IMG/VR virus record: IMGVR_UViG_2660238548_000023 | From: a virus | Lineage: Duplodnaviria; Heunggongvirae; Uroviricota; Caudoviricetes | Reading direction: 5' to 3' (one strand) | DNA length: 10,865 nucleotides | Shown here: positions 2,569 through 5,225 of the stretch, piece by piece | How the letters are laid out: each line of letters starts with the position of its first letter | Position numbering within the stretch: position 1 is the stretch's first letter | Made by a program: the position numbers and the translations under genes | Notes under the pieces: generated by a model | The model's database searches: none | What the model was told of the DNA's origin: nothing | What the model saw: only the letters and a program-made list of their open reading frames with translations

Positions 2569-3288
2569 ATGAAACGTCCGAATATGCCCGTACAGGGGCA
2601 GGGCTTCATTCAGCCTGAAATCAGCCAGAACGATATATTGATTCGCCACAAAGCAGAGTCGCGTATTGATTCCCGCGTTATTTCTGAGCGAGCAGGAATA
2701 CAACACGAAAGTATCATTGCGACGATTAAATCTCATCAATCCAGATTGCGCGAGCTTGGCTCACTGCCTCGCCAGTCAGTCAAGGAATTAACCTATTTGA
2801 AATCGGGAAAATCTGGCCGCAAGCGCGGTCGTCCTGAAATTAGTTATTTGCTGAATGAGCTACAGCTTGACTATCTGTTACGCGTTATCCGTGGGCGTGA
2901 CGCAGAACGTATCAACCAGTTCAAGCTGGATGTTACGAAGGCATTCGCGAAGCATCGCGCCGCTGAACCAGTCCGTCGCGAATATCTGCCAGGCTATCAC
3001 GAAAGCCGTGACGGGCTTAAAGCACTGGGCGCAGAACGTCACCATTACATCAACCTTGCCCGCACTGAAAATCGCTTCGCTGGGCTGGCTGTAGGCGAGC
3101 GTCAGAGCGCGGGAGAGCAACAGTTAGGCTTACTGATAGTCATGCAGAAAATCGAGCAGGCAGCATTTAACGAGGCGATACAGAACGGCATGACACCGAC
3201 CGAAGCGGTGCGGGAAGTTGCTCGCCGCATGGAGACGTTCGCCAGCCTGATGACGTCAGCGCCGTCTCTGGGGGTGAATCATGCGTAA
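2569..3288 (+). CDS. Rha-family phage regulatory protein (putative)
   Basis: 239-aa ORF; RBS aggag at 2558-2562, 6 nt before ATG 2569. The N-terminal region (ILIRHKAESRIDSRVISERAGIQHESIIATIKSH) resembles the Rha domain. Its stop overlaps the next start (ATG 3281, TAA 3286-3288). Confidence 0.6.
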   Translation: MKRPNMPVQGQGFIQPEISQNDILIRHKAESRIDSRVISERAGIQHESIIATIKSHQSRLRELGSLPRQSVKELTYLKSGKSGRKRGRPEISYLLNELQLDYLLRVIRGRDAERINQFKLDVTKAFAKHRAAEPVRREYLPGYHESRDGLKALGAERHHYINLARTENRFAGLAVGERQSAGEQQLGLLIVMQKIEQAAFNEAIQNGMTPTEAVREVARRMETFASLMTSAPSLGVNHA

Positions 3289-4804
3289 TTATGATTTCGC
3301 CGCAATTATTCCGGTATCACCTGGCATTATTGGCAGATATGAAACGGGCGTTGTCAGCGCACGCGCACTGCATAAAGCGCTCGGTGTAGGCCGTGATTTC
3401 ACCACCTGGATTAAAGGGCGTATTGAGGAATACGGATTTAAAAAAGGTGTGGATTTTGAGGCTGTAGAAAATTTGTACTTTGATTCCCAGAAACGGGGGA
3501 GCCAAAGTGTAAATATTGAACAGTTTGATTCTGGCTGGCACGTCGCCTGGGAGAACGTGAACATGCCTGACATCCGCAACGCTGCCGCCCTGTACATCGA
3601 TACTGCGGATAAGTTCGCACAGGTGAGCATCAACCATGCTGATTACATGCGCCATATCGTGAGCCATTTCGCCGCTGAGCGCATGAAACACGTTAAGCAT
3701 TATCAGAAGGAGGCTTTATCAAATTATCGCGCTGGTGGCCCTGTACGGCGTGAATATCCGCATGATGCAGGAATGGCAGGCAAAACAAAGGCGACCACGA
3801 AAGGGTCGCCAGTGGAGATAAAGGAAATCAAGCGCATCACCAACTATGCCATGAGTGTAGCTGGTGGACAAGGCTATCAGCCAGGCGGTCGGTTTTTAGT
3901 GGCTTTTAACCGCCGTGGGTATTTCTCGACAAAAGCCTCAAGGGCAAATCGTGTTGGCCTGGTGAGTGGCAGTGGATTAAGTAACAACCTCCTTTGCCGT
4001 TGTGCTTTTTCGCGCTGTCGCTCAAGTATGGATAATGCGATTTCCTGTAGTTCTTCATTTGTCATTGTCTGTACCCGTAAAGCGGTGCGCTGTAGTACCT
4101 CATATCACAGCGCAGGTATTTTTTATGGTTGTAATTTGCGTGATGATTCAGGTTGCTTTGCGACACACTGCATAAACATAAATAACGTGATGTTATTATG
4201 TGCTTTCAAAGAAAACGCAGGTATTTTTCGCACAAACTTTTCTCGCAACACATCCGACCACTTAAGCAAAAAAGCGGCATATACTGAAGCTATCCCTTAT
4301 AAAACGGGGATCGGGCGTAGGAACCCGTTTAACTGTAAGGCGATAAATGACGCCAGAAGCGTCTTTTTTTCTGCCAGCGCTTTACGCCATATCAATGGCG
4401 TTGTGTATTGTGCGTACTCGTGCACCATCCAGTCATTTCACGAGTTGCATTTTGCACAGCGCCACCAGCAAACAATGGTGATGCTGGCGGGGCTACCGAA
4501 AGGTAGGCCGGAGTCCTTACAGTCCGGTATTCCTACCCCCGCCAGTGTCACCGCCCATTGTGAGCGTAGGAACTCCTGCGGTGACGTTATTCATCACTGT
4601 AAGGAGGCTGCCAACATGGCTACTACCCCTACCCTCGTACATTCTCAGACTGCCTTTATCTGGCGCTTTATCATCTTTGGCGCGTCAGAATCCCAAATCA
4701 TCCACGTAACCGCCTGGACGGAACGCGAAGCGCGTAACCGTTGCCCGTCAGGTTGCGTTGCTGTATTCGCCGCCCGTATCCGTCAGGAGGCATCACATGG
4801 ATAA
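3281..4804 (+). CDS. AntA-domain antirepressor-like protein; 3' extent uncertain
   Basis: N-terminus (VVSARALHKALGVGRDFTTWIKGRIEEYGFKKGVDF) matches the AntA antirepressor N-domain pattern. The frame has no stop until 4804, but after about codon 230 (near 3960) the translation is Cys/Ser-rich and non-protein-like, and it runs through a hairpin plus T7 terminator (4349-4370), the structured leader and the in-frame Icd-like ORF. The true C-terminus is probably well upstream of 4804. Confidence 0.4.
   Translation: MRNYDFAAIIPVSPGIIGRYETGVVSARALHKALGVGRDFTTWIKGRIEEYGFKKGVDFEAVENLYFDSQKRGSQSVNIEQFDSGWHVAWENVNMPDIRNAAALYIDTADKFAQVSINHADYMRHIVSHFAAERMKHVKHYQKEALSNYRAGGPVRREYPHDAGMAGKTKATTKGSPVEIKEIKRITNYAMSVAGGQGYQPGGRFLVAFNRRGYFSTKASRANRVGLVSGSGLSNNLLCRCAFSRCRSSMDNAISCSSSFVIVCTRKAVRCSTSYHSAGIFYGCNLRDDSGCFATHCININNVMLLCAFKENAGIFRTNFSRNTSDHLSKKAAYTEAIPYKTGIGRRNPFNCKAINDARSVFFSASALRHINGVVYCAYSCTIQSFHELHFAQRHQQTMVMLAGLPKGRPESLQSGIPTPASVTAHCERRNSCGDVIHHCKEAANMATTPTLVHSQTAFIWRFIIFGASESQIIHVTAWTEREARNRCPSGCVAVFAARIRQEASHG
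4349..4370 (+). terminator. intrinsic terminator-like hairpin plus T7
   Basis: gacgc (4349-4353), loop cagaa, gcgtc (4359-4363), then ttttttt (4364-4370). It lies about 10 nt after the upstream copy of actgtaagg (4332-4340). Confidence 0.4.
4501..4592 (+). ncRNA. candidate c4/CI-type antisense immunity RNA (structured leader upstream of icd-like ORF)
   Basis: Hairpin 1: ggtagg (4502-4507) pairs with cctacc (4532-4537), inner stem ccgg/ccgg (4508-4511 / 4524-4527), 12-nt loop agtccttacagt. Loop bases 4514-4523 (tccttacagt) are exactly complementary to 4596-4605 (actgtaagga), which overlaps the SD of the Icd-like ORF; 9 of them also match 4332-4340. Hairpin 2: gtcaccgc (4547-4554) pairs with gcggtgac (4578-4585). 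Confidence 0.35.
4616..4804 (+). CDS. host cell division inhibitor Icd-like small protein (putative)
   Basis: 62-aa ORF (MATTPTLVHSQTAFIWRFIIFGASESQIIHVTAWTEREARNRCPSGCVAVFAARIRQEASHG). Strong SD aaggagg at 4601-4607, 8 nt before ATG 4616. Position directly after a c4-like structured leader matches the P1 c4-icd arrangement. It is in frame with the upstream long ORF. Confidence 0.4.
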   Translation: MATTPTLVHSQTAFIWRFIIFGASESQIIHVTAWTEREARNRCPSGCVAVFAARIRQEASHG

Positions 4805-5225
4805 AAACATGTTGATCGCCTCTTCTTTCGGGCTGTATGATGCCGAAGTCGCCCACATGGCGACCGGGTTTAGCAGCCTGAATCAGATAGCGGACAGCCG
4901 CTTACATTCCGATATGCGGTTTTTTTGTGTCCGTAAGCCTACCCATACCCGCATTATGGCGGGGCGTAACGGGGGAGCCTTTGCGCTCGCTGGTTCCTAT
5001 CTGGCCAGTCTGCTAACCCCGTTACGTCTCGCCACCATGTTTAGCAGCGTAGTAGCGAGACTCCTTAATCAACAGATAGGAGCCTTTCACATGGCTGTAT
5101 CCGCACGCACATCTGATTTTTGTCGCCCGTATCCGTCAGGAGGTGACTCATGCTTAAAACCTTCCGCGTCTTTTCCCGTGCTGTTAACAAGCGCGGCCAT
5201 ACCATCGGCATCACACAGAACGTGA
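4797..5225 (+). CDS. hypothetical ORF overlapping the second structured-leader copy
   Basis: ATG 4797 lies 6 nt after the first 20-bp RBS module cgcccgtatccgtcaggagg (4771-4790) and overlaps the icd-like stop (TAA 4802-4804). The translation is Ala/Ser/Leu-rich and low-complexity, and its 3' half covers a second divergent copy of the leader, so it may not encode a real protein. Confidence 0.3.
   Translation: MDKNMLIASSFGLYDAEVAHMATGFSSLNQIADSRLHSDMRFFCVRKPTHTRIMAGRNGGAFALAGSYLASLLTPLRLATMFSSVVARLLNQQIGAFHMAVSARTSDFCRPYPSGGDSCLKPSASFPVLLTSAAIPSASHRT

Follow-up and report, generated by a model that had tools for sequence, protein, structure and literature searches.

A 507-Codon Open Frame across the Immunity RNAs of a P4-Like Satellite Prophage: Probable Counterpart of P4 eta/kil

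Introduction

Why should a reading frame stay open over 507 codons when much of it does not look like protein? The question is raised by IMG/VR virus record IMGVR_UViG_2660238548_000023, a stretch of 10,865 nucleotides that is referred to here as the window and belongs to a P4-like satellite prophage, a Gram-negative phage-inducible chromosomal island (PICI). The gene order of this element is integrase, AlpA, a Bro-type zone with immunity RNAs, a D5-type primase, and a single-stranded DNA-binding protein (SSB). The frame lies on the plus strand at 3281–4804 and, from the open reading frame (ORF) listing and matches in Pfam and NCBIfam, is composed of a fragment of AntA (AntA′), an eta-like translated spacer, and an Icd/Kil-like C-terminus. 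An earlier sequence-only reading of the window had singled it out as anomalously long and had offered as explanations constraint from RNA structure together with an in-frame icd-like ORF, a sequencing or assembly frameshift, or a real fusion protein. The interpretation that fits best was not among them. It takes the long frame as the counterpart of P4 eta, a translated spacer with Icd/Kil nested at its end, and we give it a probability of about two in three.

The precedent comes from P4. In the summary of Forti et al. (1999, J Bacteriol 181:5225) that forms part of PMC10111431, Kil is described as Eta in truncated form, an upstream late promoter is the only one from which eta is translated at full length, with coupling to a homologue of alpA, and the CI RNA gene and seqA lie inside eta, whose translation prevents Rho-dependent termination. 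The P4 sequence itself contains a 214-codon ORF that holds matches to isrK and C4 and ends in the 65-aa Kil.

An Open Frame beyond Chance Length

The ORF listing of the window gives 507 codons and zero stops for 3281–4804, within a stop-to-stop stretch of 3278–4804, and the other two plus-strand frames over the same span hold 20 and 41 stops. Under a first-order Markov model, 21.2 stops are expected over 3281–4804 and the probability of finding none, P(0), is 3.7e-10; the frame is therefore real and far beyond chance, as had been claimed. The same model gives P(0) of 2.3e-7 for 3533–4615 and of 2.5e-5 for the 247 non-protein-like codons of 3875–4615 alone; for the short, GC-rich gene of the C4 immunity RNA taken by itself, P(0) is 0.31. 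A codon-usage profile along the frame is gene-like up to nt 3874, about codon 198, and has a score of ~0 in 4066–4291. The earlier estimate of about 230 protein-like codons is thus roughly borne out by codon usage but not by homology to AntA, which spans the first 86 codons only. RNA structure and the in-frame icd ORF account for some 90 codons and leave the rest of the 420 anomalous codons unaccounted for.

The Immunity Module inside the Frame

The 3′ part of the frame carries RNA genes. An isrK-like leader RNA, equivalent to the seqA region of P4, occupies 4292–4370 (plus strand) together with its intrinsic terminator. In a permissive E-value scan, Rfam RF01394 matches 4292–4369 with 50.0 bits (E = 2.4e-9; gathering threshold 50), and the Rfam scan at the gathering threshold does not list it; orthologues score 52 bits in two of the Escherichia coli relatives discussed below (L003 and L006) and 60.8 bits in P4. 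The hairpin and the run of seven T residues that the sequence-only reading had noticed lie at 4349–4363 and 4364–4370 and are the terminator of this leader. Its “c4-like hairpins” are a P4-CI-like immunity RNA of the C4/CI type (Rfam RF01695, 70.3 bits, threshold 45) at 4471–4558 (plus strand), wholly inside the ORF, and a second C4 RNA is found at 4952–5039 (72.9 bits). The first is 70% identical to the P4 cI region and the second ~80% identical to c4 of P1/P7. Each C4 RNA is flanked on both sides by perfect complements of 7–10 nt. Those of the first lie upstream at 4317–4323 and 4332–4340 and downstream, in a target region at 4566–4607 (plus strand), at 4566–4572 and 4596–4605; the last of these overlaps the Shine–Dalgarno (SD) sequence of icd, TAAGGAGG (4600–4607), which precedes the icd ATG at 4616. 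A weak match to RF03163 (c4-a1b1) is also present at 4279–4331.

The in-frame icd-like ORF encodes a 62-aa Icd/Kil-like protein nested at the end of the frame (4616–4804, plus strand). NCBIfam NF033153 matches aa 459–502 of the long ORF with 53.9 bits, and PHROGs match as well. In an AlphaFold2 model based on a 51-sequence alignment, pLDDT is 64–80 for aa ~456–500 and 25–33, with no secondary structure, for aa 200–455; the mean pLDDT of 35.7 made the model too poor for a fold search. Over aa 200–455 the Cys content is 5–16% and the codon score ~0, and only the Icd part (4616–4804) has a protein-type selection signature and a confident fold. Pfam Phage_ASH (PF10554), a family derived from the P4 ash/eta ORF, matches aa 334–455 with 69.8 bits, and the corresponding nucleotides, 4280–4645, are the leader and c4.

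Frame and Codon Constraint across Species

A survey was made of 121 c4 loci from different bacterial species, found by a degenerate c4 DNA pattern. In 79 of them c4 is traversed by a sense frame of at least 150 codons, and in 6/121 by an antisense frame of that length; the median longest frames are 183 and 58 codons. In 58 of the 79, the spanning ORF begins where an ORF upstream on the same strand, typically AlpA-sized, ends, most commonly with an overlap of exactly 4 nt. So that the choice would not depend on the ORF, 46 loci were picked by c4 and a downstream hidden Markov model (HMM) match to Kil/Icd. The Kil/Icd frame is open through the whole of c4 in 45 of these and for at least 150 nt further in 44, while of the two remaining frames one is open over 300 nt or more in 3 loci and the other in none. 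The sole exception, L107, has its spanning ORF in another frame.

Upstream of Kil/Icd, openness of the frame is not accompanied by constraint on the protein. In a codon alignment of 35 P4-type ORFs from 35 species, the ratio of third- to first/second-position diversity is 2.0–2.3 over the Kil/Icd codons and 0.8–1.36 upstream of them, and no third-position excess is seen upstream of Icd either in the 35 species or within E. coli. Since the Phage_ASH stretch lacks this excess, the family probably models conserved RNA genes in an open frame. Phage_ASH, like the proteins that RefSeq names “ash family” and the long ones it names “Icd-like,” probably represents a translated isrK-like leader and C4 RNA instead of a folded domain. 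A search of the species genome collection with ASH+Icd peptides gave no match confirmed by tblastn.

Relatives in Escherichia coli

The region was matched by megablast in 884 of 5,426 complete E. coli genomes, and a further count puts the E. coli genomes with this region at ~1,090. Eight relatives (L001–L006, L130, and L133) were fetched. All eight have a long open frame that ends at or just past c4-icd, with lengths of 508, 475, 436, 475, 558, and 529 codons in L001–L006, 357 in L130, and 445 in L133. What lies upstream varies among them: L001–L004 share the fused AntA fragment of the window, the long frame of L006 and L130 is preceded by an intact AntA of 282 aa that ends at a stop of its own, and that of L005 by a complete GIY-YIG gene, which likewise has its own stop. 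In L005, L006, and L130 the upstream gene is of the Bro type, with a tail that reads ...WLARRMGEHEHA*, and its TGA overlaps the long-ORF ATG within ATGCCTGA. The same sequence is retained in the window at 3563–3570 (plus strand) as a relic of this natural start, from which the frame is 413 codons long. L133 (E. coli GCA_012495125.1, 2281–3757) has alpA directly upstream with no Bro-type gene between; AGGGGAG-N5-ATG stands 10 nt after the alpA stop and is followed by a 418-aa ORF. L133 is the closest structural analogue of P4 vis-eta, at twice the length. P0224 was considered as an interrupted copy and rejected, because it is cut by a contig end.

Length differences among the relatives keep the frame. 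A segment of 366 nt (122 codons) that L005, L006, and L133 carry between direct repeats of 61–75 nt is absent from the window, and in L006 changes of +3, −1, and −53 nt sum to −51 and changes of −1 and −14 nt to −15. The stretch 3563–4279 is covered by over 100 distinct protein clusters of 380–413 aa from E. coli, and within this species the substitutions in 3539–3875 and 4066–4291 are flat over codon positions. Decayed copies of window 3873–4273, at 77% identity, occur in E. coli O157:H7 EDL933 (L128; NZ_CP008957.1, 1110678–1111076) and in L129; copies of this type, which lack c4-icd, lie amid insertion sequence (IS) fragments in many genomes, of O157:H7 and others. In the L128 and L129 copies the plus-strand frame is broken by a 2-nt indel. 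Because indels are compensated, starts are specific to their contexts, and the frame is lost where c4-icd is absent, it is the unbroken, coupled frame that is conserved and not the protein sequence.

The coupling itself follows a recurrent ATGnnTRA overlap, found in the window at 3281–3288, 3563–3570, 4797–4804, and 5150–5157. At 3281–3288 (plus strand) the overlap ATGCGTAA joins the stop of Rha (2569–3288) to the start of the long ORF as a translational-coupling junction; at 4797–4804, ATGGATAA joins the long ORF to the next ORF, and at 5150–5157 the remnant of a second icd (icd2) is joined to the gene that follows.

Deletion History and the AntA Fragment

The first 86 codons of the long frame (3281–3538, plus strand) are an N-terminal fragment of AntA/AntB that is cut inside the AntA domain. 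Pfam AntA (PF08346) matches aa 25–68, equal to profile positions 1–39 of 68, and the fragment is 95% identical to aa 24–104 of the full AntA in L006, with the identity ending at aa 86 of the long ORF. Local blastn aligns window 3294–3538 with L006 3501–3745 and window 3531–3949 with L006 4243–4661. The window thus lacks 497 nt that in L006 and L130 lie between two copies of CTGGCTGG, an 8-bp microhomology that marks the deletion junction at 3531–3538 (plus strand). Read from these alignments, the 497-nt deletion has placed the first 86 codons of antA in the long frame, 10 codons before the natural start at 3563. The orthologous 258 nt are labelled as a pseudogene by the Prokaryotic Genome Annotation Pipeline (PGAP; “incomplete; missing C-terminus”), as follows from the truncation of antA by this deletion. 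An AntA/AntB antirepressor requires a complete AntA domain and the C-terminal part, which the long ORF does not provide. A third deletion, of 104 nt, removed part of icd2 and destroyed the second icd.

The fusion noted by the sequence-only reading is therefore genuine, since the same AntA′ junction and open frame are found in several independently sequenced complete genomes (L001–L004), and its suggestion of a sequencing or assembly error falls away. Its suggestion of a real fusion protein is upheld in that an AntA N-terminus has been joined in frame and that homologues keep long ORFs ending in a conserved Icd C-terminus; it fails on the truncation of AntA (39/68 profile positions), on the absence of codon periodicity in the middle of the ORF, and on the absence of an AlphaFold2 fold there. 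That earlier interpretation is in this sense partly supported, but the frame as a whole is best read as an eta-like spacer.

Segment A, the Antisense Gene, and Segment C

The spacer between the natural start and the leader is built of three parts. Segment A (3563–3874, plus strand) has a codon log-odds of +0.22 per codon, compared with +0.20 to +0.33 for int, primase, and Rha. BLASTP aligns aa 101–139 of Rha with aa 121–159 of the long ORF (window 3641–3757) at 38% identity over 39 aa (E = 2e-5), and the nucleotide differences around PVRREY between the two are of the synonymous type. The likeness of AEPVRREY in one protein to GGPVRREY in the other, remarked on earlier, is hence real, but it sits downstream of the AntA fragment: in the relatives the PVRREY segment comes after the stop codon that closes the AntA or GIY-YIG gene upstream and so is not part of AntA. 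Substitutions in segment A are flat over the codon positions (10/9/9 against L006, 5/7/7 against L005, and also 7/6/5), and L133 starts its ORF inside segment A, without the first ~70 codons of the segment. Pfam, NCBIfam, and PHROGs gave no match for 3533–3880 or 3881–4279, and tblastn of 3533–4279 (both strands) and of icd1 against 120 species loci gave nothing outside E. coli. Codon usage, the BLASTP match, and the substitution pattern together make segment A a likely Rha-like relic of a Bro-network protein, now a translated spacer that evolves neutrally.

Antisense to the long frame, the minus strand at 3877–4065 holds a 62-aa ORF that is a real gene. The same start and stop are kept at 77% nucleotide identity in L128 and L129, where this ORF is intact and 46 of 62 aa are identical; the substitutions are biased to wobble positions (22/41); and PGAP annotates it as a coding sequence (CDS) in L130. 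Matches were obtained to 13 representatives, the aligned full-length homologues are 44–90% identical, and a C-terminal motif, (K/R)FALExF(V/L)(E/D)KYPRRLK..K.RPPG, is conserved in the family down to 44% identity; Pfam, NCBIfam, and PHROGs contain no match for the ORF. The long plus-strand frame shares its wobble positions with this gene, so that a six-frame pN/pS comparison with the 77%-identity remnants could not separate the two, and the gene was judged instead by ORF integrity, BLOSUM scores, and distant homologues. A terminator-like hairpin for the minus-strand gene, GGCGACC...GGTCGCC followed by TTTGTTTT, lies at 3790–3810 (minus strand) inside the plus-strand ORF. In relatives the gene has two paralogues (L005 3847–4158 and 4222–4401, minus strand), and the copy in the window is a chimera of the two formed by the 366-nt deletion between the repeats. 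In EDL933-type decayed copies, PGAP labels short plus-strand “hypothetical proteins.”

Segment C (4066–4291) is presumed, from a reading of its sequence, to be a divergent promoter region, and the minus-strand gene is divergent from this immunity promoter region. It is stop-free in the long frame and has no coding signature, with a codon log-odds of ~0, 8% Cys, and no codon periodicity against L128 (21/12/17). A candidate −10 element, TATACT, is read at 4280–4285, 7 nt before the leader start at 4292.

Proposed Role of the Frame and Rival Explanations

The frame is probably kept stop-free so that ribosomes can escort transcription through the RNA-based immunity region. The anatomy of the locus and its deletion history are observed directly, as are the selection signatures, the coupling junctions, and the retention of the open frame; the suppression of termination by translation is carried over from P4, with indirect support from a frame that is kept open without constraint on the protein, and would work as follows. 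Beginning at the stop codon of the gene before it, the long ORF crosses a presumed constitutive promoter, then the leader and terminator and the C4/CI gene, and its end is a small Kil/Icd protein for which a separate ribosome-binding site is present. From the internal promoter, short transcripts would yield the leader and the c4 RNA, which would pair with the flanking sites, including the icd SD, and switch off icd translation and downstream transcription, giving immunity. Transcripts arriving from upstream (alpA-rha-...) would be translated continuously through the region, and the trailing ribosomes would block the terminator hairpin and the pairing of c4 with its targets and deny access to Rho, so that induced transcription would be insensitive to immunity. 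Selection would then act on uninterrupted translation, that is, on the absence of stops and frameshifts and on a coupled start, and not on the amino-acid sequence, which would be why the frame is open without looking like protein. In this lineage ~1.2 kb, an antisense gene included, separate the upstream gene from icd, and the long frame stretches over the full distance. The most far-reaching form of this proposal is advanced tentatively, at slightly under even odds: a frame of 400–550 codons would serve as a sequence-unconstrained “ribosome shield” cistron that must be translated across a convergent antisense gene, a promoter, a terminator, and a small RNA gene if induced read-through is to escape c4 immunity as well as Rho.

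Several points weigh against this interpretation. The antitermination step is transferred from P4. A consensus scan found no sigma-70 promoter upstream of 4292. The intrinsic terminator (4349–4370) and the antisense gene with its terminator hairpin lie inside the ORF, and it is assumed that ribosomes override the terminator and that convergent expression is tolerated. In L003, L130, and survey locus L107 the frame that spans c4 is not the icd frame, and in L003 and L130 it ends ~50 nt inside icd; nesting in the strict sense is therefore not a requirement. The second ORF of the window has been frameshifted by the 104-nt deletion without apparent penalty. Finally, the E. coli relatives share ancestry and are not fully independent tests of the upstream extension of ~230 codons, which is in part open cheaply, as it consists of relic coding sequence and a wobble-matched antisense frame.

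These last considerations lead to the strongest of the rivals, in which the open frame is a by-product stitched together from a relic segment, an antisense wobble frame, RNA genes, and icd, all in phase by chance and with no selection on the frame. The gene-like codon usage of segment A speaks for it, as does the fact, derived from the coordinates, that plus-strand stops opposite the minus-strand gene need Tyr, His, or Gln codons in particular contexts, and c4 is short and GC-rich enough to be open with P(0) = 0.31. Even so, segment C (75 codons without coding signal) and the phase matches leave a probability of ~1e-3 or less, and the extra 122 codons in L005, L006, and L133 are open too. Compensated indels, starts and SD sequences suited to each upstream context, decay of the frame in copies without c4-icd, and a Kil frame open in 45/46 cross-species loci through sequence without codon periodicity also count against a by-product, which we regard as unlikely. 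A plainer run of luck, with a stop lost after the deletion and the remainder open by chance, would suit an element in which AntA′ is a deletion product and two more deletions (366 and 104 nt) have occurred. It is hard to reconcile with P(0) of 2.5e-5 and 2.3e-7, with the presence of the long frame in L005, L006, L130, and L133, where it predates the deletion, and with the differing upstream genes and 77–95% identities of the relatives, which argue against recent clonal copies; we consider it very improbable.

A genuine multi-domain protein AntA–X–Ash–Icd, functional throughout, could appeal to the conservation of the ORF, to the PGAP label “Icd-like protein” on products of 380–550 aa in many genomes, to the existence of a Phage_ASH “domain” in Pfam, and to PMC10111431, which places Phage_ASH in the Bro domain-swapping network. 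Yet AntA is cut short and labelled a pseudogene, and the sequence upstream of Icd has no third-position excess in 35 species or in E. coli, and no predicted structure over aa 200–455, where the Cys content is 5–16% and the codon score near zero. The region moreover encodes two RNAs, a terminator, and an antisense gene, and L133 does without the first ~210 codons; such a protein is accordingly given little credence, only somewhat more than the run of luck. An error in the record is practically negligible as an explanation, since the same junction and frame recur at 97–99% identity in complete genomes from three countries (Switzerland, Japan, and China). The eta-like spacer thus remains the preferred reading.

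The Second Module and Neighbouring Genes

A second coupled ORF (4797–5225, plus strand; ORF listing, Rfam, and blastn) begins at the ATGGATAA overlap and spans a further module. Module 2 comprises a promoter-like site (4812–4841), an isrK-like leader with a weaker match (4848–4926), c4 number 2 (4952–5039), and its targets; the icd2 remnant (ATG at 5091) is frameshifted, and c4 number 2 and its targets are intact. The window thus has two tandem c4 modules with different target sites, each with leader, targets, and a spanning ORF, and the tandem of a P4-CI-like and a P1/P7-c4-like module would be consistent with heteroimmunity.

The neighbours in the window are integrase, AlpA, Rha, the D5-type primase, SSB, a ProQ/FinO-family protein, and PerC paralogues. 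The ProQ/FinO-family RNA-chaperone gene (8742–9209; PF04352, 86 bits) lies just downstream of SSB, and a role of its product in c4/leader RNA pairing is conceivable. Three PerC-family activator paralogues (PF06069) are found at 9169–9471, 10394–10696, and 10698–10865, the last cut by the window end.

Implications for Annotation

The eta-like interpretation accounts for an oddity of RefSeq annotation, in which “Icd-like” and “Ash family” proteins of 180–550 aa adjoin antA pseudogenes. In genome annotation, a conserved protein sequence should be claimed for the last ~62 codons only; the isrK-like leader and C4 inside the ORF are the functional immunity determinants. The P4 eta/kil design is near-universal in P4-type c4 modules (45/46 species loci), and the present locus could serve as a natural system in which to test translation-coupled antitermination across a long stretch, ~1.2 kb that includes an antisense gene. 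If the ribosome-shield proposal is true, Phage_ASH and the long RefSeq “Icd-like proteins” describe a translated RNA leader, and the avoidance of any untranslated gap before kil/icd, whatever its size, would be a general design principle of P4-type satellites.

Comparison with Known Systems

In the P1/P7 immI region (c4 – icd – ant1/2), a C4 antisense RNA is likewise processed from the transcript of its targets, the target lies over the icd ribosome-binding site with icd downstream, and c4 number 2 of the window is ~80% identical. In P7, in contrast, c4 is not crossed by any reading frame, that of icd begins downstream of c4 and stays open for just 84 codons, and a promoter and C1 operator lie immediately upstream. 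The isrK – orf45 – anrP region of Gifsy-1 (Hershko-Shalev et al. 2016, PMC4825925) resembles the window in having a short leader small RNA (sRNA) with an intrinsic terminator that is partly read through into the downstream message, and a small upstream ORF whose translation controls a downstream antirepressor-type gene. It differs in that IsrK acts in trans to activate translation of orf45, and PMC4825925 describes no c4 RNA and reports no long ORF spanning the sRNA.

Genes of the Bro zone in Gram-negative PICIs are known to host homologues of CI and seqA (Mageeney et al. 2023, PMC10111431), and the C4 and isrK Rfam profiles were used in that work to find RNAs inside Bro-network genes. The element studied here shares the layout of these islands, with an integration zone containing AlpA, a Bro zone with immunity RNAs, and a replication zone with primase and SSB. 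The interpretation differs, since PMC10111431 takes Phage_ASH as a protein domain of the Bro network, whereas the codon-position analysis reported here finds no protein constraint in it.

The closest system is eta/kil of P4. In both, an ORF begins at an upstream stop and contains a leader with seqA-type sites, a C4/CI gene, and seqC-type sites, both end as a Kil/Icd of ~62–65 aa that starts MATT... and has its own SD, and Phage_ASH matches both. They differ in several respects. DNA identity is only ~70% over 160 nt, and the ORF has 507 codons (413 from the natural start) as against 197–199 in P4. Here alpA is separated from the ORF by Rha and Bro-type genes, and the frame, which has gained an AntA N-terminal fragment by deletion, runs over a relic Rha-like segment and across a protein gene on the opposite strand. 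Next to it in tandem comes another c4 module, probably heteroimmune and spanned by an ORF of its own. The kind of system is already known from P4 eta/kil, and what is most interesting beyond it is the generalisation that the ASH part would be translated but not constrained as protein.

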